A stretch of 32,000 bases of DNA from Alkalilimnicola ehrlichii MLHE-1 (GCF_000014785.1 NC_008340.1:1230001-1262000), one strand, 5' to 3'; positions 4,768 to 18,224 are shown, numbered from the stretch's first letter. The notes: generated by a model from the sequence alone, not told the origin. Program-made: numbers and translations.

Positions 4768-7700
4768 ATGTCACCTGATGCGCAAGTTCCCCCCGAAGCC
4801 GGTGGCCCACAGGGACGCGATTTTCCCCTGGGTATCGCCGGCTTCCGTTACGCGGATCTCCACAACCCGGCGCAGCTTGCGGAACTGTTGAGCGTTTTCG
4901 ACCAATTCCTGGCGACGGACGATCCGGTATTGTTCGAGGTCTTTCAGCAGTACCGGACGGCCGGGGCGGGGGATCTCTCGGCCACGGAACGCTCGGCGGT
5001 ACTCACCGGGGTGGCCCCGCAAGTGAGCCGTTTTCTGGCCCGCCTCTTTGGGATCGAGAGCGAATGGGGTCGACTCCGGGAACGCGTTCAGCGGGAGTTG
5101 GATACCGTCATGGCCTACCGGGACCAAGTGGTCGCGAAGGTCCGGAAGCGCTTTGCCCCCGAGGATCTAGCCGACTGGGACCTGGAGACCCTGGACCGCG
5201 AGGTCTCTGTGCTCCAAGAGGCATTGTCCGGGAGCGATAACCCAGTCGAAGACCCGGAGCGGGCGCTTGCCGCGAGCGCCATGTCCGTGCTGCAGGCCAT
5301 GGAGACGGGGCACGACCCCGATGGCGTAACGGCCCTTCGGCAGTCACTGGAGGCGCATCCCGATGGCCCCACATTGCTGGCGGAGGCGCTGTCGGAGAGC
5401 ACCCCGCAGGCCTTCTTGGCCGCGCTTCTCAACCGGATAGAACGCTGGACTTTCGCCGCCGTTCAATCCACCGCAATCGGTGCCCAAACGCATGGTTGGA
5501 CGGCGCTGCGGGGACGGGCCAAGACGGACTTTGAGAACCAAGTGCCGTGCGAGCCCGTGGCGCGGGAGGGGTATACGGCGTATCGCACCGACGTGACGCG
5601 AAGGCGGGATGGGTTCGCACTCACTGATCCGGGTCTGCCGCTAAGGCGGATCGTGGACGAGGTGGAGCACTGCCTCTACTGCCACGATCGCGACCGGGAC
5701 TTCTGCTCCAAGGGTATGCGCGCAAAGGCGGGTGGTTTTCGCAACAACCCCTTGGGCACGCCCATGGTGGGCTGTCCGCTGGAGGAGAAGATCTCAGAGG
5801 CGCAATATCTCAAGCACCGGGGCGACAGCCTGGCCGCCCTGGCGGTGGTTATGGTGGACAACCCTATGGTGCCCGGGACCGGCCACCGCATCTGCAAGGA
5901 CTGCGTCACCGCCTGTATCTATCAGAAGGTCGAGCCGGTGGCGATCCCGGAGGTGGAAACGGCCATCCTGCGCGAGGTGCTTGCCCTGCCTTACGGCTTC
6001 GAGATCTACAGCCTGCTCACCCGGTGGAACCCCCTGCACGTCCAGCGCCCCCACATGCTGCCCTACAACGGCAAGAATGTGCTGGTTGCCGGTATGGGGC
6101 CGGCAGGTTACACCCTGGCCCACTACCTGTTGAATGAGGGGTTTGGCGTTGTCGGCATCGATGGCCTGAAGATTGAGCCCCTGCCCGATGAGTTGACTGG
6201 CGTCGCCAGCGGCGTTCCCGCGCCGGTGCGCGATTTCGACACCCTCTACGAGCGACTGGATGAACGGACGGTACTTGGCTTCGGCGGGGTCGCCGAGTAT
6301 GGCATTACCGCTCGCTGGGACAAGAACTTCCTCAAGGTCATCTATCTGACGCTAGCACGACGCCGCGCATTCCGCTGCTTTGGGGGGGTGCGCCTGGGTG
6401 GCACCCTGACGGTGGACGACGCCTGGGCCCTCGGCTTTCATCACATTGCGATCGCCGCCGGGGCCGGCAAGCCGACGGTCATCGGGCTTGAGAACAATCT
6501 GGTGCGCGGCATCCGTCAGGCATCGGACTTTCTGATGGGGCTGCAGCTGACCGGTGCGGCCCAGCGCAACGCCCTGGCCAACATGCAGGTTCGCCTGCCC
6601 GCCGGAGTGGTGGGGGGCGGGCTGACGGCCGTGGATACCACCACGGAGCTCCTCGCCTACTACCCCATCCAGGTGGAGCGAACGTTGGAGCGGTACGAGG
6701 CTGTGGTCAGCCGCTTTGGAGAGGAAGCGGTCCTGGCCGAATATGACGGCGAGGAACGCGAGATCCTTGACGAGTTTCTGGACCATGGCCGCGCCGTCCG
6801 GGCCGAGCGCGCCCGGGCAGAGCAGGCAGGGGAGTGCCCTGACTTCGCGCATCTGCTGTCGGGATGGGGGGGCGTCACGCTCTTCTACCGCAAGGGGTTG
6901 CATGACGCGCCGGCCTATCGGCAGAACCACGACGAGCTGGTCAGGGCCATGGAGGAGGGCCTGATTCTGGCTGATGGTATGGCACCGCAATCGGCCATGG
7001 CAGACGGGCATGGCCACCTGAAGGCCGTTCGTTTTGAGAAGATGCATCAGCAGGAGGATGGCGACTGGGTGGCCGGTGGTGAGACACTCACCTTGCCCCT
7101 TCGGACCCTGGTAGTGGCCGCCGGTACCTCACCCAACGTGGCCTACGAAAGGGAGCACCCGGGCACCTTCGAGCTGGATGGCAAATTCTTCCGTGCCTTC
7201 GAGCCCGGAGAGGACGCCCCACACCTGACGCCGGTGGGCGAGAACCAGCCCACCCCAAAAATTGGTAACCCGGCACCCTTCACCTCCTATGAACATGACG
7301 GCCGCCGCGTGTCCTTCTTCGGCGACAACCATCCCGTTTACGCAGGCAACGTGGTGCGCGCCATGGCCAGCGCCAAGGACGGTTATCCATACATCGTCGA
7401 CCTCTTCCGTCAGGCGCTCGACAGCCTGGACCCGGCCGATCAGCCGCAACGGGATGCGGCCATAAGCCGGTTGCTGGCGCACCTGGATGATCAGCTCCAG
7501 GCACGCGTACAGACGGTGCGGCGGCTGGCACCCAGTATTGTCGAGGTGGTGGCGCGTGCGCCGCTGCAGGCGCGCAACTTCCAGCCCGGGCAGTTCTACC
7601 GGGTACAGAACTACGCGTCGTGCGCCCCGCGGATGAACGGCGTGCCGCTGGTCACCGAGGGGATGGCGCTGACCGGGGCCTGGGTGGATAGGGCGCAGGG

Positions 7701-8784: not shown

Positions 8785-9013
8785 GTCACTGCGAGGAGGC
8801 GAAGCCGAAGTGGCAGTCTACCGCCCTGGATCGCCACGGGCCTTCGGCCCTCGCGATGACGGGGGGAAAGCCTTCGGCCCTGGCAATGACGGGGGTGCCC
8901 CGTTCCTCGTTGATTCGGGCCCGCGCAGCGGGGAGGGGGGCTCGCGATGACGGGGGTGTGCCGTCCTTCGTAGATTCGGGCTCGCGCAGCGGGGGTGGGG
9001 CTCGCAATGAGGA
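8785..9013. repeat. Cluster of GC-rich palindromic (REP-like) elements with degenerate tandem units
   Basis: GTCACTGCGAGG...CCTCGCGATGAC is a long imperfect palindrome. Units GCCTTCGGCCCTCGCGATGACGGGGG (8840-8865) and GCCTTCGGCCCTGGCAATGACGGGGG (8870-8895) match 24/26. Two units of about 58 bp (8896-8956 and 8957-9013) share TTCGGGC(C/T)CGCGCAGCGGGG...GGGGCTCGC(G/A)ATGA. The GGGCC-TTC-GGCCC hairpin cores sit in a noncoding context. Confidence 0.8.
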
Positions 9014-9069: not shown

Positions 9070-9081
9070 TCTTCGCTTCTT

Positions 9082-9129
9082 TGGCTCCCCGGGACGGGCT
9101 CGAACCGCCGACCCAGTGATTAACAGTCA
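9082..9129 (-). repeat. att direct repeat, copy 1: 48-bp duplicate of the 3-prime part of tRNA-Asn
   Basis: TGGCTCCCCGGGACGGGCTCGAACCGCCGACCCAGTGATTAACAGTCA is identical (48/48) to 18149-18196 inside the intact tRNA. It covers CCA, acceptor 3-prime strand, T arm, variable loop and anticodon loop. Confidence 0.92.
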
Positions 9130-9244
9130 AGCGTTTCTTTCTTTCCCGTCCATTTTTATCACTTGCTCCCTCCCTCCTGGATGCCCGTAAACCCTTGTAC
9201 GGCCTGCATCCAAGGCGTATTATTCTATTCAGGTTAATGCAGTT

Positions 9245-9289
9245 GGGTGCACATCTTGTGACCGCCAGTGTGCACCCAGTTGTGCACCC
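9245..9289. promoter_or_regulatory. Left-arm array of 9-mer TGTGCACCC sites (candidate integrase/excisionase arm-type sites)
   Basis: GGGTGCACA (9245-9253, inverted), then TGTGCACCC at 9269-9277 and 9281-9289 (12-bp spacing). The block ACCGCCAGTGTGCACCCAGTTGTGCACCCA (9261-9290) matches 18061-18090 at 27/30 in the same orientation. Confidence 0.5.
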
Positions 9290-9340
9290 AATCGGCCCAG
9301 TGATTCGGGTTCTGATCTAGTGATTCAGGAGGGCAGGGCG

Positions 9341-10735
9341 ATGGCTCGCAAGGGTATTACGGCCAAGAAACTGGAGGCGCTCCAGGGCAAGCGCCGCAAG
9401 TCGGCCACCAGGGAGTGGGACGGTGACGGTTCAGGGTTCGGGGTGAAGGTGTCGGCAGCCGGGCGGCTGACATTCTTTCAGTTCTACTACTCCCCCGAGG
9501 GCACCACCGATAAAGACGGTAACGACATTACCGGCAAGCGGCGGTTCATGGGGCTGGGTAACTACCCTGAGACAACGCTCGCAGAGGCGCGGGAGAAGGC
9601 GCAGGAGGCGCGAGAGTTGCTAGAGCGGGGCATTGATCCGCAGGAGCACGCCCGAGAGCAGCAGGAGGCGCACAGGCGGGAGAAACGCAAGCGGGCGCAA
9701 CGGGGCACGCTGGCAGGGGTGGCGGCGCTGTACCTGTGGCACATGCGCAAGCGCGGGCGCTCCAGGGAGTACATTACCGCCGTTCGCCGTGGGTTCCACC
9801 GCGACGTGTTCCCGGTGGTGCCCCGTGACACCAAGGCCGGGGACGTGGAGCCGGAGGACGTGCAACTGATCCTGCACCGGCCCCTAAGCCGTGGCGCTGA
9901 CCATACCGCCCGAGTGCTGCGGGCTAACCTGCATCGCGCGTTCAAGTTGGCCATTCAGGCGGATAACGACCCGCGCAACCTGGGCAGTGCCGTTAAGTTC
10001 CGCGTGCGCCACAACCCGGTGGAGGACGTGCCGCTTGAGGTGCACGTTACGCCCGGAGATCGGGAGCTTTCATTTAGCGAGATCGGGCGCGTATGGCGGG
10101 AGGCCGACCACGCGACCCCTTACCCGCAGGATGCGTTGCTGTTGCGCCTGCTGCTGGCGCTGGGCGGCCAGCACATTACCGAGCTGAGGGAAGCACAGTG
10201 GCCCGAGTTCGATTTGCAGGCCGGACAGTGGCACCTGAAAGCCGCCCGGCACAAAAACCGCACCCGCGACCACCTGGTACCAATCAACAGCACCGCCGCC
10301 GAAGTGCTGGAGGAATTGCGGGCGCTGACTGGTGGGCAAGGGTACCTGTTCCCGCAGCTACGCAACGCGCACAAGCCCATGCGAGCCGAGAGGCCGGGCG
10401 CTATCGTTCGCGGTCTGCTGGCGCACCTGGAGGCGCAGGGCGAGCCGATGGAGAAGTTTACGGCCTCAGACTTCCGGCGCACCTGCAAAACGCGGATGCA
10501 CGAGATAGGGATTCCCAAAACCACCACCAACCACCTGCACAACCATGACTTTGGTGGCGTGAGCGCGAAGCACTACGACCGCTACGACTATTGGGGCGAG
10601 AAACAGCGGGCCATGCGGGCATGGGATATTGCGCTGAAAGCCGCCATTGCAGGCGAGCCGGTGCCCGAGGCGCGTTGCCGGGCGGCGCTCCAGTGGGACG
10701 AGAATGGCGGGGCGCGGCTGGAGGTGGTGGGCTAG
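9341..10735 (+). CDS. Tyrosine recombinase, P4-type integrase (N-terminal arm-binding DUF4102-like domain)
   Basis: AGGAGGG RBS 8 nt before the ATG at 9341 (the track start at 9320 is less likely). N-terminus GSGFGVKVSAAGRLTFFQFYYSP...RRFMGLGNYPETTLAEAREKAQEARELLERGIDP matches the P4-integrase arm-domain pattern. The C-terminal catalytic region has DFRRTCKT...LHNH...KHYDRYDY (R, H-x-x-R-like, Tyr). Confidence 0.85.
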   Translation: MARKGITAKKLEALQGKRRKSATREWDGDGSGFGVKVSAAGRLTFFQFYYSPEGTTDKDGNDITGKRRFMGLGNYPETTLAEAREKAQEARELLERGIDPQEHAREQQEAHRREKRKRAQRGTLAGVAALYLWHMRKRGRSREYITAVRRGFHRDVFPVVPRDTKAGDVEPEDVQLILHRPLSRGADHTARVLRANLHRAFKLAIQADNDPRNLGSAVKFRVRHNPVEDVPLEVHVTPGDRELSFSEIGRVWREADHATPYPQDALLLRLLLALGGQHITELREAQWPEFDLQAGQWHLKAARHKNRTRDHLVPINSTAAEVLEELRALTGGQGYLFPQLRNAHKPMRAERPGAIVRGLLAHLEAQGEPMEKFTASDFRRTCKTRMHEIGIPKTTTNHLHNHDFGGVSAKHYDRYDYWGEKQRAMRAWDIALKAAIAGEPVPEARCRAALQWDENGGARLEVVG

Positions 10736-11072
10736 GTCAAAACACAACATCTAGTGGGGGTGTCGCGCTACACCCCTGATATATGGCTAAAATCGGCACT
10801 TGCGCGACCCCCCTCCAGTGCGGTTTAATCAGGTCTGTGCGTGACGGATTGCGCACAAAAAAGCCCGGCCGCTGTTGGAGCAGTGACCGGGCTGGTGGGG
10901 CAAAGCCCCGTTTCTTTCTACCTTTCGTGCTCCACCGTTGGGGGTGGAGTGAGGTCTACCGTTGGAGCGGTAGCCTCATAGGCAGTATAGCCAGAGTTGA
11001 ACACATAGCGCAACACCTGGCCGTATCTTGCCGCCCCCCGCTGGTGGAGCCTCGAACATGAGGTTCTGACCA

Positions 11073-11300
11073 ATGACCGCACAAAACGCGACCGCCTGCC
11101 CTTCCCGCCTGATGAAAAAGCGGGAAGTCATCGACGTTACCGGCCTTTCCGAGTCCACGATCTGGCGACGTGAGCAGGAAGGGCGATTCCCTCCCCGTAT
11201 TCGCCTGGGCCAGCGCATGACCGTCTGGCGTGAGTCGGACGTTCACGAATGGCTTGCCGATCCGGTTGGTTATCAGCAGGCAGGCGGGGAGGGTGCGTAA
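11073..11300 (+). CDS. AlpA-family (prophage CP4-57-type) DNA-binding regulator / excisionase-like protein
   Basis: 75 aa. LMKKREVIDVTGLSESTIWRREQEGRFPPRIRLGQRMTVWRESDVHEWL matches the AlpA/MerR-like winged-HTH pattern. Its stop overlaps the next gene start (TAATG). Confidence 0.75.
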   Translation: MTAQNATACPSRLMKKREVIDVTGLSESTIWRREQEGRFPPRIRLGQRMTVWRESDVHEWLADPVGYQQAGGEGA

Positions 11301-14077
11301 TGCTGACAGAAAAACGAAACCCCGCCGCCGGGGGCGAACCGGCGAACGGGGCGGGCGCACATTGGGATGGCGTGCAACAGAATTATAGCACTGCCGATAG
11401 CACTGCCGATGCCGCCGTTTCACTGTTCACCGCTACGAACCCCTCCCGCCTTTCCAAGCGGTACCATCTGGACCAACAGGGCCAGCTTCTGACCGCCCCC
11501 GGTGGTTCCCTAGTGCGTGGCGAATACCGGCGCATGGAATGCGGGGAGCCGTGGCAACTGGCAACGCTAATTGACGGGTTGCGGCCAGACCAAGCGTTGG
11601 CCTTTGGCGTGGCTAGGGCTGAACGTTCCCCCGTGGCATCCCGCAAGGCCGCAAAAGAAGGGGACATTACCCGCACCCGTGAGCACTTCGATTGGCCCGC
11701 CGCGCCCGGGTGGCTCATGCTCGACTATGACCCTGAGGCGACCGCCAAACCGCTAGACCGGGATGGCCTGTTGTCGGTGCTGCGGGAAGCGTGGCCAGAC
11801 ATCGAGCGTGCCCCGTTGGTGCTGGGTGATAGTGGCAGTTCCCATATCTACCACGCTGATACGGGCGAATGCGTTAAGGGCCGGGGCGGGTTGCGCTGCT
11901 ATGTCCTGGTGGCTGACGCCCGCGACATACCCCGAGCAGGTGAGGTTCTGCATAAGCGCCTATGGCTTGCGGGTCACGGCTTTTACTTGGTGAGCAAGTC
12001 CGGTGCCCTGCTGGAGCGTGGCCCCGTGGATGCCGTGGTGTGGCAGCCCGAGCGCCTGGACTTCGCCGCCGGTGCCGCTTGCATCGCGCCCCTGGAACAA
12101 CGCCGCCCACCGGCAGAGCCGCGCAACAATGACGCCGCGCCCATCGACACCCGCGCAACGCTGCCGGACCTGACAGCCGCAGAGCTGGAGGAACTGGCCG
12201 AGCTGCGCCGACAGGAACGCGAGGCAATGGCGCCAGACCAAGCATTGCAGCGGGAAGAGTGGGTAGAGCAGCGCCTAGACGAAATCCAGCCGAAGGATGT
12301 CGAGGAAGCCCGCGCCCGGCTAACTGATGCGGTGACGAACGGGCGTCTTTACGGTGACTTCGTTTTGCACCACCAAAGCGGCAAGCGCGTGACGGTCGGG
12401 CAAGTGCTGGACGATCCCGACCGCTGGCATGGGCAACGCTTCGCTGATCCGCTGGAACCGGATTACCGGGCGGACAGCCGAATAGCATGGCTGAACCTTC
12501 GCAGTGGTGGCCGCCCCTTCATCTACAGTCATGCCCACGGCGGGGCGCGTTATACGTTGATCCGCGCAAGCGCCACGTTGAAGGCCCAGCCCGGGGAAAT
12601 GCCGCGCATTGTGCGCGAAGCCGACGCCCTTATGGCTGAAGCCGGTGTTGTGTTCCAACGTGGGGGGCAGCTTGTCCGGGTAGTGGAGGACGGTACCCTA
12701 TTCGGGGTGCAACCGCCTTGGTTGCGGACTCACCTGGAGGAAGTAGCCGCATGGCTGAGGTGGGACGGGCGCGCCAAGGATTGGCTACCTGCCGACGCGC
12801 CCGGAGACCTTGCGCCGCGCATCCTGGCCAACCGGGGCGGCTGGAGCGTGCCCGAGCTGACCGGGGTAATTCGCGGGCCGATACTGCGCCCCGATGGCTC
12901 CCTGTTGAACCAGCCCGGCTATGACAAGGCAACCGGCCTGCTGCTGCTAGCAGACCACCCGGACGGCTGGCCAGCCATTCCAGCGCACCCGAGCCGGGAG
13001 CAGGTACGGGCCGCGTTGGCCACCCTTTGGGAGCCTTTCGCGCGCTTCCCTTATGTCGATGACGTGAGCCGAGCGGTTCAACTGGCCGCGTTGCTGACCG
13101 CCGTTCAGCGCCCACTGTTGGAGACCGCGCCCGCCTTCGCCTGGAACGCCTACCGGGCAGGAACGGGCAAGAGCAAGGGCGCGAAGGCTACAGCATGGCT
13201 AGGCGGTTCCGAGCCGGTCGAAAGCCCGTGGTCGGAGCAAGCCGAGGAACAGCGCAAGCGCCTAATGTCCGCGCTGATGGCCGGGCCGTCTAGTCTGCTG
13301 CTAGACAACGTAAGCGGCCCTATGGACTCGGACACGTTATGCGCGGTGTTGACCGCGAGCGAGTTCAGAGACCGCAAGCTAGGCGTATCTGAGGATGTGA
13401 GCGCCCCAACCCGCGTGTTGGTGGCTGCCACGGGTAACAACCTTCGACTAGTGGGCGACCTGTCCCGCCGGGTACTGGTTGCCACCATCGACCACGGAGT
13501 GGAGAACCCGGAGCGCCTGGCCTTCCCCTTTGACCCGGTGGCCCGCGTGCGGGAGCGGTGGTTGCACTACCGCGCCGCCGCCCTAACGGTGCTGCGCGGG
13601 TTTCTCGCTGAGGGCGCCCCAGCCCATGGCCTTGGAACGATGGGCAGCTATGAACAATGGGATGCCCTTATTCGCCAATGCGTGGTCTGGGTCAGGGCCG
13701 AAGGGCTGGCGGGGTTTAGCCTGGCTGACCCTGCCGACGCCGTGGCCCGCAACTACGACAACGACCCGGAAACGCAGAAGCTCCGGGCGCTGGTGGCGGC
13801 ATGGCACGCGCAACACGCCGCCGCGCCCGTGCGGGTCGCCACGCTAATCAGCACAGCCGGGGGCGATGTCGACGGCTGCACCTTCCCGCAATACGACGAA
13901 GGACGGGCGGCGCTGCTGGAGGCCCTGCAAGAGATCGCGGGGGATCGTGGTTATGTGAATCGCCGCCGGTTGGGCCGTTGGATAGAGCGCCACGCCGGGC
14001 GCGTTGTCGATGGCCTGCGCATTGAGAGCGCGGGGGAGGCGTACAAGACCCGGCAATGGCGGGTGGTGCAAGTCTGA
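11300..14077 (+). CDS. Primase/helicase-like replication protein (AEP-like N-terminal motifs + P-loop NTPase)
   Basis: Start ATG at 11300, coupled to the alpA-like stop; the track ORF begins earlier at 11249. N-terminal motifs resemble archaeo-eukaryotic primase signatures: LMLDYDPE (DxD), GDSGSSHIYH (SGxxxH), VDAVVW. The central ILRPDGSLLNQPGYDKATGLLL resembles the D5_N/P4-primase region. P-loop AYRAGTGKSKGA and Walker-B-like SSLLLDNV. The position after int and alpA is as in P4-like/PICI-like elements. Confidence 0.6.
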   Translation: MLTEKRNPAAGGEPANGAGAHWDGVQQNYSTADSTADAAVSLFTATNPSRLSKRYHLDQQGQLLTAPGGSLVRGEYRRMECGEPWQLATLIDGLRPDQALAFGVARAERSPVASRKAAKEGDITRTREHFDWPAAPGWLMLDYDPEATAKPLDRDGLLSVLREAWPDIERAPLVLGDSGSSHIYHADTGECVKGRGGLRCYVLVADARDIPRAGEVLHKRLWLAGHGFYLVSKSGALLERGPVDAVVWQPERLDFAAGAACIAPLEQRRPPAEPRNNDAAPIDTRATLPDLTAAELEELAELRRQEREAMAPDQALQREEWVEQRLDEIQPKDVEEARARLTDAVTNGRLYGDFVLHHQSGKRVTVGQVLDDPDRWHGQRFADPLEPDYRADSRIAWLNLRSGGRPFIYSHAHGGARYTLIRASATLKAQPGEMPRIVREADALMAEAGVVFQRGGQLVRVVEDGTLFGVQPPWLRTHLEEVAAWLRWDGRAKDWLPADAPGDLAPRILANRGGWSVPELTGVIRGPILRPDGSLLNQPGYDKATGLLLLADHPDGWPAIPAHPSREQVRAALATLWEPFARFPYVDDVSRAVQLAALLTAVQRPLLETAPAFAWNAYRAGTGKSKGAKATAWLGGSEPVESPWSEQAEEQRKRLMSALMAGPSSLLLDNVSGPMDSDTLCAVLTASEFRDRKLGVSEDVSAPTRVLVAATGNNLRLVGDLSRRVLVATIDHGVENPERLAFPFDPVARVRERWLHYRAAALTVLRGFLAEGAPAHGLGTMGSYEQWDALIRQCVVWVRAEGLAGFSLADPADAVARNYDNDPETQKLRALVAAWHAQHAAAPVRVATLISTAGGDVDGCTFPQYDEGRAALLEALQEIAGDRGYVNRRRLGRWIERHAGRVVDGLRIESAGEAYKTRQWRVVQV

Positions 14078-14079
14078 GT

Positions 14080-14194
14080 TAGTGGGGGTTTCGGGGGTTT
14101 CTGGGGTTTCTCACAACGATGGGTTCAAAACTGTCAGCGACAGTTCAGACCTATAGAGCGAAACAAACCCCAGAAACCCCACAAACCCCCACTA
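14080..14194. repeat. 30-bp inverted repeat built from three tandem 9-bp GGGGGTTTC iterons per arm (candidate origin of replication)
   Basis: Left arm TAGTGGGGGTTTCGGGGGTTTCTGGGGTTT (14080-14109) pairs with AAACCCCAGAAACCCCACAAACCCCCACTA (14165-14194) at 28/30. The 55-bp spacer is less GC-rich and holds a perfect hairpin AACTGTC-AGC-GACAGTT (14129-14145). The repeat starts 3 bp after the primase-like stop. Confidence 0.8.
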
Positions 14195-14398
14195 GCTACC
14201 GGACCCGAATATAACCTCGCTCAAATCAGGGGCAATTACCCCGGCCTACCCTCCAGCGCCCGCCTTTAAGCCGCCCCTGTGGTGGTGATTGAACCCCGCC
14301 AAGTGATAACTAATCACTCTCGTCAATTCATGTTAATGCAGTTTAATCAATCACTTGTAAAACATTGTCCCGCTAGTACCATAGGGAGTAAGGGTTTT

Positions 14399-14419
14399 AG
14401 GTGCACAAATGGGTGCACA
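14399..14419. promoter_or_regulatory. Two inverted-orientation copies of the 9-mer (AGGTGCACA, GGGTGCACA) upstream of the packaging module
   Basis: 14399-14407 (8/9) and 14411-14419 (9/9), 12-bp spacing, 23 bp upstream of the 14442 ATG and downstream of a possible TTGTAA-N16-TACCAT promoter (14355-14382). Confidence 0.45.
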
Positions 14420-14441
14420 TTAGCGAGAGGTTAGGCGCGAA

Positions 14442-14807
14442 ATGGCGGCCAAGCATCAGGACATTCCAAAGCAATACCGCCCCGGCTGGCTGGAATCGCT
14501 GGACGGTCGTTATGGCCTTGCCCGTGAGCTACGCGCCCGCTTCGATGAAGTCTGTAATGACCTTGGTGGTGCGGATCGCTTGTCTTACATGCAGCGATCC
14601 CTTGTAGAGCGTGGTCTGTGGCTCGAATACTGGCTGGCCCAACAGGAGCAGGCGTTGTCCAAGGGCGGTGACTTCGACGTGGGCAAGTGGGTGCAGGCCG
14701 CTAACAGTCTCCAGGGTATCTACTCCCGCCTTGGTCTGGAGCGCCGTCAACGTGACGTTCCAGACCTTGCGCAATACCTGGCGGCCAAGGCAGGGGAGGC
14801 GGGCTAA
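14442..14807 (+). CDS. Hypothetical protein; putative small terminase subunit by position
   Basis: 121-aa helical protein with high GC3. It lies directly upstream of, and is translationally coupled to (TAATG at 14805-14809), the mini-ORF and TerL. I recognise no diagnostic motif. Confidence 0.45.
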   Translation: MAAKHQDIPKQYRPGWLESLDGRYGLARELRARFDEVCNDLGGADRLSYMQRSLVERGLWLEYWLAQQEQALSKGGDFDVGKWVQAANSLQGIYSRLGLERRQRDVPDLAQYLAAKAGEAG

Positions 14808-15040
14808 TGGTCATCTGTGCCAACTGCCGCCACTACCCCGGTCCCGGCCAGCTATGCGCGGTGGCCAAGCGCCACGCCACGCACCACCGCCGTTCCTGCC
14901 GCTACCACCGGACGGACACCAGCGCCCGCCACGTCGCCACGCTCCGCCGCCTGGCGGTGGATTGGCTCCACCAGGGCGATCACAACCGCTACGCCGTAAC
15001 CCTGGACCTGGCCCACCAGGCACGGGAGGCGATGCGATGA
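14807..15040 (+). CDS. Small Cys4/His-rich protein (possible zinc-ribbon), hypothetical
   Basis: 77 aa, MVICANCRHYPGPGQLCAVAKRHATHHRRSCRYH. Strong G/C third-position bias. Start and stop both overlap the neighbours (TAATG; ATGCGATGA). Confidence 0.45.
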   Translation: MVICANCRHYPGPGQLCAVAKRHATHHRRSCRYHRTDTSARHVATLRRLAVDWLHQGDHNRYAVTLDLAHQAREAMR

Positions 15041-16428
15041 GCGTCACCATCCGCGACGTGATGACCGATCCCGCCCTGTTCGGTGGCCAGTTCGGTGGCG
15101 ACACCTGGGCCGCCTGGCGTGCGCTCCTGAGCGGCTTTTATGGCCTCCCGCTGGACGATGCCGAGGCACAGCACTGGCACGCGCTCACAGACCGCGAGAG
15201 CGCCCCGCAGAGCGCACATGACGAGTTGTGGCTAGTGGTAGGCCGCCGCGGTGGCAAGTCCAATGCAGCGGCCTTGCTGGCGGTCTATGAGGCGTGTTTC
15301 AAAGACCACCGCGATGCCCTGGCACCCGGTGAGGTTGCCACCACCCGCGTCATGGCTGCCGACCGTGCGCAGGCCCGCAGCGTGTTCCGGTATATCTCCG
15401 GTCTGATGCACGCGAATCCGATGCTGGAACGGCTGATCGTGCGCGAGGATCGGGAATCCATAGAGCTGTCCAACCGGGCTGTTATCGAGGTGGGCACGGC
15501 CTCATTCCGCACGACACGCGGCTACACGTTCGCGGCGGTGATTGCCGACGAGGTGGCGTTCTGGCGCTCCGATGACAGCGCGAACCCTGACAGCGAGATC
15601 ATTGCCGCCGTGCGTCCCGGTCTGGCCACGCTGAACGGCAAGCTGATCGCGCTTTCCAGCCCATACGCCCGACGCGGTGAGCTATGGGAAAACTACCGCC
15701 GACACTACGGCAAGGCATCGCCCATCCTGGTGGCGCAGGCTCCCAGCCGCACCATGAATCCCTCATTGCCTGAGCGCGTGGTCACGGAGGCAATGGAGCG
15801 TGACCCGGCCAGTGCGGCGGCGGAGTACCTGGCGGAGTTCAGGACGGACGTGGAGACCTTCCTGCAACGCGAAGTAGTAGAGGCCGCCACGCGGCCCACC
15901 CCGCTGGAGTTGCCCTACAACAAGCGCGTTACCTATACCGCCTTTGTTGATCCGGCAGGTGGTGGCGCGGATGAGTTCACCGCCGCCATCGGCCACCGGG
16001 AAGGGGAGCGCGTGGTCGTGGACGTGCTACGCGCCCGCAAGGGTACGCCTGCCGAGATCGTTGCCGAATACGCCGACCTGCTGAAGTCCTACCGGATCAC
16101 CCGCGCTATCTCGGATCGTTATGCAGGCTCATGGCCTGCCGACGAGTTCAGCCGCCACGGGATCACCGTAGAGCAGGCCGCTAAACCGAAGTCAGACCTT
16201 TATCGGGACATGCTCGCCAGCATGAACAGCGCCCGCGTGGAGCTTCCGCCCGATGATCGGCTGATGACCCAGCTAATCAGCCTGGAGCGCCGCACAGCAC
16301 GCGGTGGCCGGGACAGTATCGACCACGCCCCCGGTGGTCACGATGACAGAGCAAACGCCGTTGCCGGTCTGGTGGCGGCCAACTCACGCGCCCCAGGCGA
16401 ACGGATGCGGGCGCTTTGCACTTGGTAG
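15037..16428 (+). CDS. Phage terminase large subunit
   Basis: The ATG at 15037 overlaps the upstream stop; the track ORF from 14611 has a Pro/Arg-rich, non-protein-like extension. Walker A LVVGRRGGKSNAAALL, Walker B AAVIADEVAFW. The C-terminal RNaseH-like nuclease has acidic residues in FVDPAGGGADEF and GGHDDRANAVAG. Confidence 0.8.
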   Translation: MSVTIRDVMTDPALFGGQFGGDTWAAWRALLSGFYGLPLDDAEAQHWHALTDRESAPQSAHDELWLVVGRRGGKSNAAALLAVYEACFKDHRDALAPGEVATTRVMAADRAQARSVFRYISGLMHANPMLERLIVREDRESIELSNRAVIEVGTASFRTTRGYTFAAVIADEVAFWRSDDSANPDSEIIAAVRPGLATLNGKLIALSSPYARRGELWENYRRHYGKASPILVAQAPSRTMNPSLPERVVTEAMERDPASAAAEYLAEFRTDVETFLQREVVEAATRPTPLELPYNKRVTYTAFVDPAGGGADEFTAAIGHREGERVVVDVLRARKGTPAEIVAEYADLLKSYRITRAISDRYAGSWPADEFSRHGITVEQAAKPKSDLYRDMLASMNSARVELPPDDRLMTQLISLERRTARGGRDSIDHAPGGHDDRANAVAGLVAANSRAPGERMRALCTW

Positions 16429-16446
16429 TACAGCGAGGTAACGACG

Positions 16447-16872
16447 ATGGCAGTTTTCAGAAGTGACAGCCCACAGCATTGGGAACAACCGTCCAGGCCC
16501 ATTAAGGAGTTCTGGAGTTCCGACCTTGAGCCGAAGGCCGACAGCAAGCCCACCCGACGCAAGGCAGACCCGAGCGCGGTGCAACGGCTGATGAACCAGC
16601 GCACCGCCACCCCGAAGGCCGACACCGCTCCGCCGCGCCGTGCTGGCCGGTATGACGCTGGTGCCGAGCGCCGCCGACAGGCCGCCGCGATGGCGGAAAT
16701 CCGCGACCGTCACAAGTCTAGTCGCGGCCTCACCCGCACCGACGCGAAGGCAAAGGCCGCTCCGGTCATGCCAGAGCCGACCACGGACAGCGCTCCGAGT
16801 GGTGGCGGGTATCAGGCGATGGTGGACGCGATCAAGGGCGCACATAAGCGGGGAGGTGATAACAATGGGTAA
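16447..16872 (+). CDS. Hypothetical basic, low-complexity protein
   Basis: 141 aa, rich in Arg/Lys/Ala/Pro, with no recognisable motif. It occupies the position where a portal gene would follow TerL in a phage. It overlaps the next ORF by 8 bp (ATGGGTAA). Confidence 0.4.
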   Translation: MAVFRSDSPQHWEQPSRPIKEFWSSDLEPKADSKPTRRKADPSAVQRLMNQRTATPKADTAPPRRAGRYDAGAERRRQAAAMAEIRDRHKSSRGLTRTDAKAKAAPVMPEPTTDSAPSGGGYQAMVDAIKGAHKRGGDNNG

Positions 16873-17437
16873 GCATGTAGACGCACTGGAAAAGCAGATT
16901 GCCGAAGAGTACCGGCTCAACGAGGAACACGCAGCCGCCGCCGACAAGGCCCGCGACGAGTATCAGGCCGCCGTGGCTGCCGGGGACATGGGAGCGGCTT
17001 CCAACTGCCGTGCCGAGGCCGAACGGCTGGACGGCCTTGCTCGTCAACATGGCGACCGCATAGACGCCCTGGAGGCGCAACGGCCCGAAGCCGAGCGCAA
17101 GGATAACGGCCCTGCCTTCCGGCAGGCGGTGAAGGTGATGGAGCAGGAGTTGCAGGAGGAAGCCGACACCCATGCCGAGCTGGCCGAGCTGGTGGGTAAG
17201 CTGGCCGATCTGCGTAAACGGCTGGACGAAGTACACGCCAGCGCCACCGCCGCCTGTCGCAAAGCCTTTCAGGCCGCCGACGCTGCCCATGAACCGCGAC
17301 CCGAAGTTGACCGGGATCGCATGGCCACCACCGCCGACATGGATGCCCTGATGCGTACAGTAAGGGAGCTGATGAACGTGGCGGGGCACCAGGCAACGCT
17401 AGTCATGAACACGCGGGATAAGGCCCGCGCCGCCTAG
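16865..17437 (+). CDS. Hypothetical acidic alpha-helical coiled-coil protein (scaffold-like composition)
   Basis: The ATG at 16865 is in frame with track ORF 16640-17437. 190 aa, starting MGKHVDALEKQIAEEYRLNEEHAAAADKARDEYQAAV..., with heptad-like Ala/Glu/Leu/Arg composition and good GC3 bias. Confidence 0.5.
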   Translation: MGKHVDALEKQIAEEYRLNEEHAAAADKARDEYQAAVAAGDMGAASNCRAEAERLDGLARQHGDRIDALEAQRPEAERKDNGPAFRQAVKVMEQELQEEADTHAELAELVGKLADLRKRLDEVHASATAACRKAFQAADAAHEPRPEVDRDRMATTADMDALMRTVRELMNVAGHQATLVMNTRDKARAA

Positions 17438-17519
17438 ACCTCGCTGGAAGTGGGGAGCGGTTATTGCCTGCACCGCTCGCGTCCGGCCCGATGGGGTGGC
17501 CGCCCACGAAACCCCTAGC

Positions 17520-17565
17520 GCCCCGGTGGCCTCACTCAGCCATCGGGGCGTGTTTTGTTTTTGGG
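17520..17565 (+). terminator. Rho-independent terminator after the packaging-module genes
   Basis: Stem GCCCCGGTGG (17520-17529) / CCATCGGGGC (17540-17549), 9/10, with a 10-nt loop, followed by GTGTTTTGTTTTTGGG. Confidence 0.55.
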
Positions 17566-17593
17566 AGCCGCCATCGCAACGGAAGCACTCGCC

Positions 17594-18058
17594 ATGTATG
17601 AGGCGGAGGCGAAGGAGAGGCAGAGGTTGTCCCCTGGGCGGCCAGTCGCGAGCGCCGGAAAAGGTCCGGAAATAATTCCGGATGTTTCTGATGATCAGCC
17701 CATCACCACCAGTCAGAAGGCCGCCATCGCAGCCGAGAAGATGGAGCCGCCCAAGCCGTCCCGCTACGAGCAAGAATCCCGCGCCAAGGCCGCCGCAGAC
17801 TTCGGCACCAATCCGCGCTATGTGTCGGATGCGAAGAGGTGGCGCAGTGCTAGGCCGCATTCTTGCATGTCATGCAAGGGGCATTCCCCCATGCAAGGCG
17901 TGCCAACATTGAAGTTTCCTATCGGTATTGGCGGTAAACGGCGTTTGTCCTATCGACCTGCGCGGGTGGTCTGGCATCCATCCGCAGAGTGGGGCGGGTT
18001 CTGGCGACCCGGTGGCCGACCGCTGGGTAAAGTGCGCTGCACCCAGTTATGCACCTAG
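17594..18058 (+). pseudogene. ParB-like/KorB-like fragment (probable remnant)
   Basis: YEAEAKERQRLSPGRP...GKGPEI...ESRAKAAADFGTNPRYVSDAKRW resembles the region after the ParB N-terminal domain in phage ParB-like nucleases, but no N-terminal domain is present. The track start (TTG at 17555) lies inside the terminator T-tract, and the 3-prime part of the ORF runs through the arm-site repeats. Confidence 0.25.
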
Positions 18059-18089
18059 CAACCGCCAATGTGCACCCACCTGTGCACCC
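18037..18089. promoter_or_regulatory. Right-arm array of 9-mer sites (candidate arm-type recombinase sites)
   Basis: Perfect TGTGCACCC at 18069-18077 and 18081-18089 (12-bp spacing, the same geometry as the left arm), plus degenerate copies CTGCACCC (18037-18044) and TATGCACCT (18048-18056), 12 bp apart. Confidence 0.5.
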
Positions 18090-18103
18090 AGATAACCCCC
18101 AGA

Positions 18104-18147
18104 CAAACAAAAAGGGCCTAAGCGAATCGCCTAGGCCCTTGTTTTGT
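18104..18147 (-). terminator. Rho-independent (bidirectional-looking) terminator supplied by the element to the reconstituted tRNA-Asn
   Basis: Stem AGGGCCTA (18113-18120) / TAGGCCCT (18132-18139) with an 11-nt loop. An A-run lies on one side and TTGTTTTGT on the other. It lies directly 3-prime of the tRNA on the minus strand. Confidence 0.6.
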
Positions 18148-18148
18148 A

Positions 18149-18224
<76 letters not shown>

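Follow-up and report, generated by a model that had tools for sequence, protein, structure and literature searches.

A 32,000-nt stretch of the Alkalilimnicola ehrlichii MLHE-1 chromosome (NC_008340.1:1230001-1262000), hereafter the window, harbors a 9.1-kb island integrated in a tRNA-Asn gene, in which the 9-mer TGTGCACCC recurs close to both ends and again in front of the packaging genes. The comparison of this island with related elements supports the reading, which we consider probable, that these 9-mers are predicted arm-type sites of the island's own tyrosine integrase (Int) and that the copies in front of the packaging genes (the M pair) belong to an internal mimic of the attachment (att) site. 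The layout of the sites, their conservation, and two independent co-variations, one with the arm motif and the other with the target tRNA, were observed directly.

Six exact copies of TGTGCACCC were located in the window, at 9245-9253(-), 9269-9277(+), 9281-9289(+), 14411-14419(-), 18069-18077(+), and 18081-18089(+), all of them reported in a preliminary description of this sequence; the fuller form of the motif reads nGTGCACCCAa. Among 100 dinucleotide-preserving shuffles, the mean number of copies was 0.61 and the maximum 3, so that 0/100 reached six. All six copies (6/6) fall inside the 1,119 bp of intergenic DNA in the island, with no exact copy in the remaining ~30.9 kb of the window and none in its 23 kb of chromosomal flank. 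Variants with one mismatch amounted to 13 window-wide against 13.5 expected, showing no enrichment, and thus the signal consists of the clustering of exact copies. Other elements of the earlier account were recovered as well, namely an 8/9 copy at 14399-14407(-), a degenerate pair cTGCACCCagtTATGCACCT at 18037-18056, a 27/30 match between the 30-bp blocks 9261-9290 and 18061-18090, and a conserved spacing, which is 12 bp in every pair of the window. Its statement that the motif occurs only in noncoding DNA stands for the six exact copies, whereas a doubtful open reading frame (ORF), 17555-18058, reaches into the degenerate copies at 18037-18056 with its final codons.

The limits of the island were set by a 53-nt direct repeat (9077-9129 and 18144-18196, 96% identical) of the 3' 53 nt of tRNA-Asn; the motif copies flank this repeat and therefore lie on both attP arms, here named left (L) and right (R). 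The features of the two ends are as follows:

9077-9129: core repeat on the attL side, a copy of the 3' part of tRNA-Asn (53-nt direct repeat), left boundary of the island
9195-9223, + strand: putative int promoter TTGTAC-17-TATTAT, read by eye, with a promoter-like element at the same position in the related elements L004 and L002
9245-9253, - strand: inverted copy of the L arm, GGGTGCACA on the + strand
9269-9289, + strand: tandem pair of the L arm, TGTGCACCCagtTGTGCACCC, 12-bp pitch, upstream of int
9341-10735, + strand: tyrosine integrase with an N-terminal arm-binding domain (Pfam PF13356, E 9e-19, residues 7-107; PF00589, E 2e-11; PHROG 1), at 100% identity with a protein of A. ehrlichii MLHE-1
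18036-18056, + strand: degenerate pair of the R arm, gCTGCACCCagtTATGCACCT (repeat family D4)
18069-18089, + strand: tandem pair of the R arm, TGTGCACCCaccTGTGCACCC, ~60 bp from the tRNA 3' end
18149-18224, - strand: tRNA-Asn(GTT) (ARAGORN, Rfam)
18182-18198, within tRNA-Asn: anticodon stem-loop AGTGA-TTAACAG-TCACT, presumed crossover region, at the inner end of the 53-nt repeat

In the reconstructed attP, with positions counted from the centre of the anticodon loop, the R-arm copies lie at about -154 to -101 (direct) and the L-arm copies at about +122 to +166 (the inverted copy, then the direct pair). Short repeats distinct from the core are hence found on either side of the crossover site within ~200 bp, which is the arrangement of arm-type sites. 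The arm-binding domain noted earlier in the gene starting at 9341 was recognized by the Arm-DNA-bind_3 profile, together with a Phage_integrase match, and the 9-mer comprises the sole 8-mer repeat common to both arms in the window and in the related elements L002 and L007, which leaves an integrase of this kind without alternative candidate sites. The L-arm copies lie between the by-eye promoter and the int ribosome-binding site (RBS). The tandem pair abuts this RBS in L003, L004, and L007, so any int promoter must be upstream of the pair. The att core's left half is present twice (CCCAGTGATT at 9296-9305 and AGTGATTC at 9319-9326, +) in the stretch that separates the L-arm pair from the int RBS, and L002 carries at 9913-9921 the sequence CCTAGTGAT, which matches its own core variant; these extra core halves may be additional core-type integrase sites.

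Relatives with integrases 36-77% identical, inserted in four different tRNAs, keep the window motif (GTGCACCCA) on both arms. The integrases that are 58-77% identical, from L002 (Natronospira bacteriovora), L003 (Aquisalimonas), and the metagenomic L004 and L010, are preceded by the same layout of an inverted copy, 15 bp, and a tandem pair at 12-bp pitch, and the inverted copy 15 bp before the pair is likewise conserved in L007. The att cores of L002, L003, L004, and L010 derive from three different tRNA types, and the cargo differs among the elements sharing the motif (terminase_4 and a protease in L002, a restriction-modification system in L003). At the right ends, L002 has its R-arm pair at 17858-17878, 60 bp from tRNA-Asn, L004 has three copies, and L007 has a pair at 14943-14966; the flanks of L002 and L003 contain no exact copy beyond the element limits. 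Conservation at the arms of related islands had been set beforehand as the test that could refute the arm-site proposal, and the motif proved to be kept in L002, L003, L004, L007, and L010. The most informative case is L007. Its integrase (5607-6875) has an N-domain 59% identical to that of the window, while the rest is 30% identical, and GTGCACCCA is found at L, M, and R of this element despite its tRNA-Lys target. The identity values mark the L007 integrase as a mosaic, that is, a predicted natural swap of arm-binding versus core-binding parts.

Elements in which the integrase lineage differs (L143, L146, L148, L150, L169, L170, and L174) exhibit other arm motifs: GGTGACAAA in L143 (Spiribacter vilamensis, tRNA-Asn), GGTCACACG in L146 (tRNA-Val), and TGTTGGY both in L148 (tRNA-Asn 3' end) and in L150 (tmRNA). 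The same motif thus accompanies Int N-domains 59-77% identical, and other motifs accompany diverged Ints. The arm-type reading first proposed for a P4-type integrase is supported by these comparisons, since the predicted sites flank attP and are conserved or replaced along with the integrase lineage. Satellite integrases of the GTGCACCCA class carry in their arm-binding domain a 12-residue insert, SPEGTTDKDGND (Int residues ~50-63); L007 has it, and L006, L009, and L143 are without it.

The third pair is placed before the packaging genes, in a region with the following features:

14302-14318: pseudo-core AGTGA-TAACTAA-TCACT, the tRNA-Asn anticodon-stem arms around a different 7-bp spacer
14345-14382, + strand: IHF-consensus match AATCAATCACTTG (14345-14357) overlapping the putative promoter TTGTAA-16-TACCAT (14355-14382), a block conserved in alignment A2
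14399-14419, - strand: M pair, reading TGTGCACCCattTGTGCACCT on this strand; 22 bp separate it from the small-ORF start
14442-14807, + strand: 121-aa all-helical ORF before TerL, possible small terminase
15037-16428, + strand: large terminase subunit (TerL; phrog_2, E 5e-23, with weak TerL_ATPase and T7 RNaseH-like matches)

An M site was found in 11 related elements comprising six arm motifs, and in each of them it consists of the element's own motif, inverted, a short way upstream of the small ORF found before TerL. In L143, L146, L148, and L150, for example, the own motif occurs on the arms and, inverted, at most 70 bp upstream of the small ORF. A matrix of M regions from eight elements against four motif classes was strictly diagonal. 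As a blind test, we took the TerL relatives from IMG/VR, three of which have an integrase; all three (3/3) followed the rule, with two further motif classes. The longest word common to L and to the reverse complement of M averaged 11.1 nt (minimum 8) in ten elements, compared with 6.3 nt (maximum 10) in 80 cross-class pairs; L145, which has an M site without an int gene, falls outside this comparison. In the alignment of the M regions, the pseudo-core is followed by a TTCA...ATTCA block, then by AATCAATCACTTGTA and a -10-like hexamer, and finally by the M pair with the RBS behind it; AATCAATCACTTGTA forms an IHF-consensus match in two members and overlaps a -35-like hexamer. A second conserved block, of the TTCTATTCA / TTCAnGTTAATGCAGTT type, was observed in the L arm (9222-9244) and in the M region (14323-14343) of GTGCACCCA-class elements (alignment A2, columns ~57-75), and it is a candidate AlpA or host-factor site.

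The pseudo-core was searched for as the two 5-nt anticodon-stem arms of each element's own target tRNA with any 7 nt between them, allowing 0-1 mismatch. Throughout the 32 kb of the window, the stretch at 14302-14318 was the sole match besides the real site at 18182-18198. Pseudo-cores were found in the window, L004, L145, L007, L143, and L146 (Asn, Thr, Lys, and Val targets), at a distance of 72-99 bp from M on its upstream side; at a tolerance of one mismatch, a few additional matches are scattered over both L146 and L007. In these six elements the stems match the own tRNA at 9-10/10 positions and the spacers at 2-4/7. In the window, the arms are identical and the spacer TAACTAA agrees with the real TTAACAG at 3/7, so the identical overlap expected of an att core is absent. 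This retention of the stems around a mismatched spacer points to a binding mimic rather than a recombination partner. Local alignment of the tRNA with the sequence upstream of M, a weak test for short sites, exceeded the shuffles only in L146, where 12 additional flanking nt are shared with the tRNA (Smith-Waterman score 35, shuffle maximum 26).

Two comparisons separate the specificities. The window and L007 have one arm motif in common but different tRNA targets, and their pseudo-cores differ in step with the tRNA. L143 has the same target tRNA and the same pseudo-core stems as the window but another arm motif, and its M pair corresponds to that motif. Since M varies with the specificity for the arms as well as with that for the core (tRNA), the best explanation is a single protein that reads both, namely the integrase. 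The association of the third pair with control of the packaging module, suggested in the preliminary description, is strengthened by the sequence comparisons, as the pair is conserved, co-varies with the arms, and has a pseudo-core alongside.

What we infer in the following model is which protein binds, where the promoters lie, in which direction regulation acts, and that it is coupled to excision. The N-terminal domain of the integrase would bind the arm copies while the C-terminal domains hold the core; once the element has circularized, the crossover site in the anticodon stem-loop would have both R-arm pairs on one side and the L-arm triplet on the other, at about 100-165 bp. By lying between the likely int promoter and the RBS, the L-arm copies would provide for negative autoregulation of int. 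In the M region, the proposed operator would run from the pseudo-core through ~90 bp with a promoter-like element to two inverted arm-type sites and the RBS of the small ORF-TerL operon. An integrase bridging the pseudo-core and the M pair would enclose the promoter and most likely repress this operon, repression being the simplest reading of an M pair that abuts the RBS and has promoter-like hexamers immediately before it. With its altered spacer, the pseudo-core could be bound but would not undergo strand exchange with the real att sites, by which half of the element would otherwise be deleted or inverted. Whether the packaging genes are expressed would in that case be set by free integrase, and so by the state of recombination; re-formed attP could titrate the integrase, for instance, or AlpA could bring about a remodelling. 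We tentatively extend this model, with somewhat less than even confidence, to a widespread ~9-kb satellite-like family in which the element's own integrase governs the terminase operon through an att mimic re-tailored with each change of tRNA target or arm specificity, so that packaging expression reads the recombination state.

The distribution of the motif reaches beyond these integrases. An IMG/VR pattern scan for GTGCACCCANNNGTGCACCCA returned 11 loci, and in 8/11 of them two clusters 210-250 bp apart surround a tRNA-like core beside a DUF4102 integrase of a different subfamily (26-30% identical); one of these loci is the isolated Pseudomonas phage Persinger. A metagenome pattern scan yielded, among the matches listed, a third DUF4102 subfamily with the same motif and mostly unrelated 12-bp tandem arrays. 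On the strength of this pattern, GTGCACCCA is a predicted attP feature of widespread occurrence. In Persinger (L011/L142, NC_054149, 24.6-25.1 kb), attP is seen beside the phage's own tRNA-Arg, and a candidate core, CTGCTTAGAAGGCGG, mimics the tRNA-Arg anticodon stem-loop with GTGCACCCA pairs on both flanks. In L015 (4520-4800), a low-GC phage contig with an integrase without a recognizable DUF4102 domain, GTGCACCCA pairs are present on both sides of a tRNA-like core, one of them inside the end of the int reading frame. L014, prophage-like by its appearance, has a tail-type gene followed by a tRNA immediately upstream of its att region; its motif pairs at 4903-4923 and 5992-6012 stand directly before non-integrase genes, with int 4 kb away.

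Several observations weigh against the assignment of the sites to the integrase and of M to an att mimic. The GTGCACCCA pairs flank attP beside Ints with barely alignable N-domains (Persinger and its relatives, the 'MGKLSD...' islands, and the low-GC phage); that such dissimilar N-domains share one 9-mer is hard to square with a simple N-domain specificity and tempers the arm-site assignment. The N-domain of L006 is 53% identical, yet its repeat differs. The IHF consensus was found in 2/8 M regions (window and L004), no pseudo-core was evident in L148 and L150, whose targets are 3' ends, and a consensus promoter scan called neither of the by-eye promoters (9195-9223 and 14355-14382). Finally, an AlpA/HTH_17 gene is present in every element examined (including Persinger, L095, and L169-L174) and diverges with the motif class, so that AlpA is not separated from the Int N-domain as the partner of the motif.

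P4 Vis regulates late promoters and is needed for excision. The repeats might be sites of the island's AlpA-type protein, a candidate recombination directionality factor (RDF); in the manner of P4 Vis, 186 Apl, or P2 Cox, this small winged-helix factor would polymerize on direct repeats at the att arms and at the internal promoter, switching both excision and packaging. AlpA homologs are 56-59% identical in all compared satellite relatives with GTGCACCCA, and RDF sites are typically direct repeats spaced by roughly one helical turn, the pitch here being 11-12 bp. Binding at both att and a promoter is documented for 186 Apl and P2 Cox (PMC7498355, PMC3936717), and the three phage proteins share with the present case the placement of one recombination protein at att and at a promoter, with direct repeats at a similar helical spacing. 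They differ in being small RDFs on one arm, whereas here the sites occupy both arms and accompany a core mimic, which points to the integrase. An RDF would be expected to occupy a single arm, with the core to one side and the arm-type sites to the other, but the copies lie on both arms and in both orientations, with no other arm-type candidate, and attributing them to AlpA leaves the arm-binding domain of the integrase without sites. The tracking of the tRNA anticodon stem by the M pseudo-core is a property of the core-binding/catalytic domains of integrases, not of an RDF. The recognition-helix regions of the AlpA proteins are similar across motif classes (TIWRR, TVWRW, and SVWRW), and the TTCTATTCA-type block is available as an RDF site. 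The 9-mer sites are also sharply defined, whereas RdfS, which binds both att and a promoter, does so without a consensus motif (PMC11963761). The att mimic thus favors Int over AlpA as the predicted binder, and we regard the AlpA alternative as unlikely, if still deserving attention.

Tandem integration at tRNA sites is common, and M could accordingly be the decaying, functionless relic of an old att junction left by fused tandem elements, with only the L and R copies of importance. In keeping with this, tRNA-like sequence extends beyond the stems upstream of M (GAACC..CCGCCAAGTGA in the window, and 30 nt at 80% identity in L146). However, the stems are kept at 9-10/10 with the spacer changed in 6/6 pseudo-cores, which indicates selective conservation and not uniform decay. 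The M pair moreover follows the current arm motif (six classes) and the pseudo-core the current tRNA target (four), all 11 elements that have an M site show it next to the RBS and inverted, and no int remnant follows M. A relic is therefore improbable.

The type I iterons of the P4 alpha protein are TGTTCACC, one base off TGTGCACC, and by analogy the repeats might be replicase iterons, one cluster lying ~200 bp from the probable replication origin. The same motif is nevertheless found with at least four unrelated replicases (the 926-aa primase of the window and L003, the NrS1-1_pol-like HBD/DUF3987 of L004, the DnaB/AAA_25 of L007, and the Prim-Pol/DUF927 of L095), while L002 is without any large replicase, a GGGGTTTC array separately marks the origin, and the sites flank att cores in phages. 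The iteron explanation was rejected for this lack of co-variation with the replicase and is very improbable. A chance cluster or a genome-wide REP-like repeat of the host, for which one might cite the many unrelated 12-bp tandem arrays among the matches listed from the metagenome pair scan, was rejected in view of the shuffles, the 23 kb of copy-free chromosomal flank in the window, the copy-free flanks of L002 and L003, and the conservation of orthologous positions in other genera, and is extremely improbable.

The integrase-bound att mimic can be set beside known systems. In the P' arm of lambda attP (C'-H'-P'1-P'2-P'3), one bivalent integrase joins a core-type site, across a bend, to the tandem arm-type sites next to it, and we propose a like architecture for the R arm and for the M region. 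Recombination is the sole function of the lambda arm, whereas M has a non-matching spacer, a promoter in the loop, and, in some members, an IHF consensus. In ICEMlSymR7A of Mesorhizobium, the P4-family integrase IntS has an experimentally defined arm consensus, TGKTGGTATC, and several short arm-type repeats flank the core within an attP of ~280 bp; attP and intS alone suffice for integration, and attP-bound IntS silences PintS (PMC11963761). The TGTTGGY motif of L148/L150 is near-identical to this consensus, whereas the window motif is GTGCACCCA. No internal arm-plus-core mimic before another operon is described for ICEMlSymR7A, where RdfS, not Int, links excision to the transfer genes (PMC11963761). 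For KplE1 IntS/TorI and P4 Int/Vis, in which int abuts an att arm and arm-type, core-type, and RDF sites overlap the int promoter, negative autoregulation of int through attL sites is established, and such an organization is predicted for 61.5% of tRNA-associated int genes (PMC2951348). The regulated gene there is int itself; here, a second site of like build lies 5 kb inside the element, before the packaging genes. Repression of transcription by a tyrosine-recombinase fold is documented for MrpR/YopR and SroF of SPbeta-like phages (PMC10516654, bioRxiv 2025.11.27.690993); these are dedicated repressors that the abstracts do not describe as integrases acting at an element's own att sites, whereas here a bona fide integrase would perform both tasks through an att look-alike.

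Arm sites and int autoregulation are known biology, and an Int-bound att mimic on a packaging promoter appears to be undescribed. In the open-access literature, we found nothing that pairs GTGCACCCA with an integrase arm site and no internal att-like operator before packaging genes. To our knowledge, arm-type sites have been experimentally defined for very few P4/DUF4102-type integrases; a sharply defined motif, six alternative specificities, and natural domain swaps together offer a system for studying how the arm domain reads DNA. If the proposal is true, the att mimic would couple the excision state to the making of packaging proteins in a simple manner, a question open for most phage satellites outside SaPI, PICI, and P4, and the architecture of a recombination site could be copied and reused as an operator. 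In addition, the rule that one motif marks the two arms and recurs in inverted orientation ahead of the small ORF-TerL pair can serve to delimit this unannotated family in genomes.

The gene order of the island, on the + strand, is integrase, AlpA, the 926-aa primase/helicase, the 121-aa ORF, TerL, and two or three ORFs without an assignment. The remaining features are listed below:

11073-11300, + strand: AlpA-type helix-turn-helix (HTH) protein, candidate RDF (PF05930, E 8e-17)
11297-14077, + strand: primase/helicase-like replicase (phrog_16593, phrog_29234)
14077-14197: inverted GGGGTTTC iteron arrays, differing from the 9-mer (inverted repeat I1, 33 nt, 91% complementary)

The island fits the description of a phage satellite (PICI or P4-like sensu lato), with its 9.1 kb, int, alpA, a replicase, few packaging genes, and no full virion module. 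Rfam detected the tRNA alone over the region, and a contig search with the integrase gave one weak unrelated match (L001). Among the fetched loci, a homolog of the replicase was found only in L003. Directly after the primase/helicase gene, GGGGTTTC(T) arrays at 14077-14109 and 14165-14197 flank a less GC-rich centre, and they are probably the island's replication origin.

The 121-aa ORF belongs to a family of at least 858 proteins (E<=1e-5) without a Pfam domain on record, and a search of viral contigs with the small-ORF alignment gave no matches. Its model is all-helical (pLDDT 86.6), and the best meaningful fold match, HK97 TerS 8pop_B, was non-significant (probability 0.54, E 1.9), so the label TerS-like that it had received is a guess from position. 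Between this ORF and TerL lies a 77-aa Cys/His-rich ORF (14807-15040), with a 105-aa ORF at the same place in L148. The relatives of TerL (34-55% identical, L152-L199, IMG/VR) are mostly contigs, many of 40-110 kb, with no integrase homolog detected upstream of TerL; these int-less, TerL-bearing viral contigs are possibly helper-type phages and the source of the satellite terminase.

At the right end, the ORF 17555-18058, which has no Pfam match, looks plausible in its N-terminal part, where EAKERQ...SRAKAAADFGTNPRYVSDAKR resembles an HTH on inspection, and a similar peptide is seen in L007 at 14760-14910. The tail of the window ORF, with many W, R, and C residues, extends into the R-arm copies, and the gene may be frameshifted or decaying. 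In the chromosomal flank just outside the island, the region 8900-9000 contains two 40-nt GC-rich direct repeats, REP-like and 61 bp apart.

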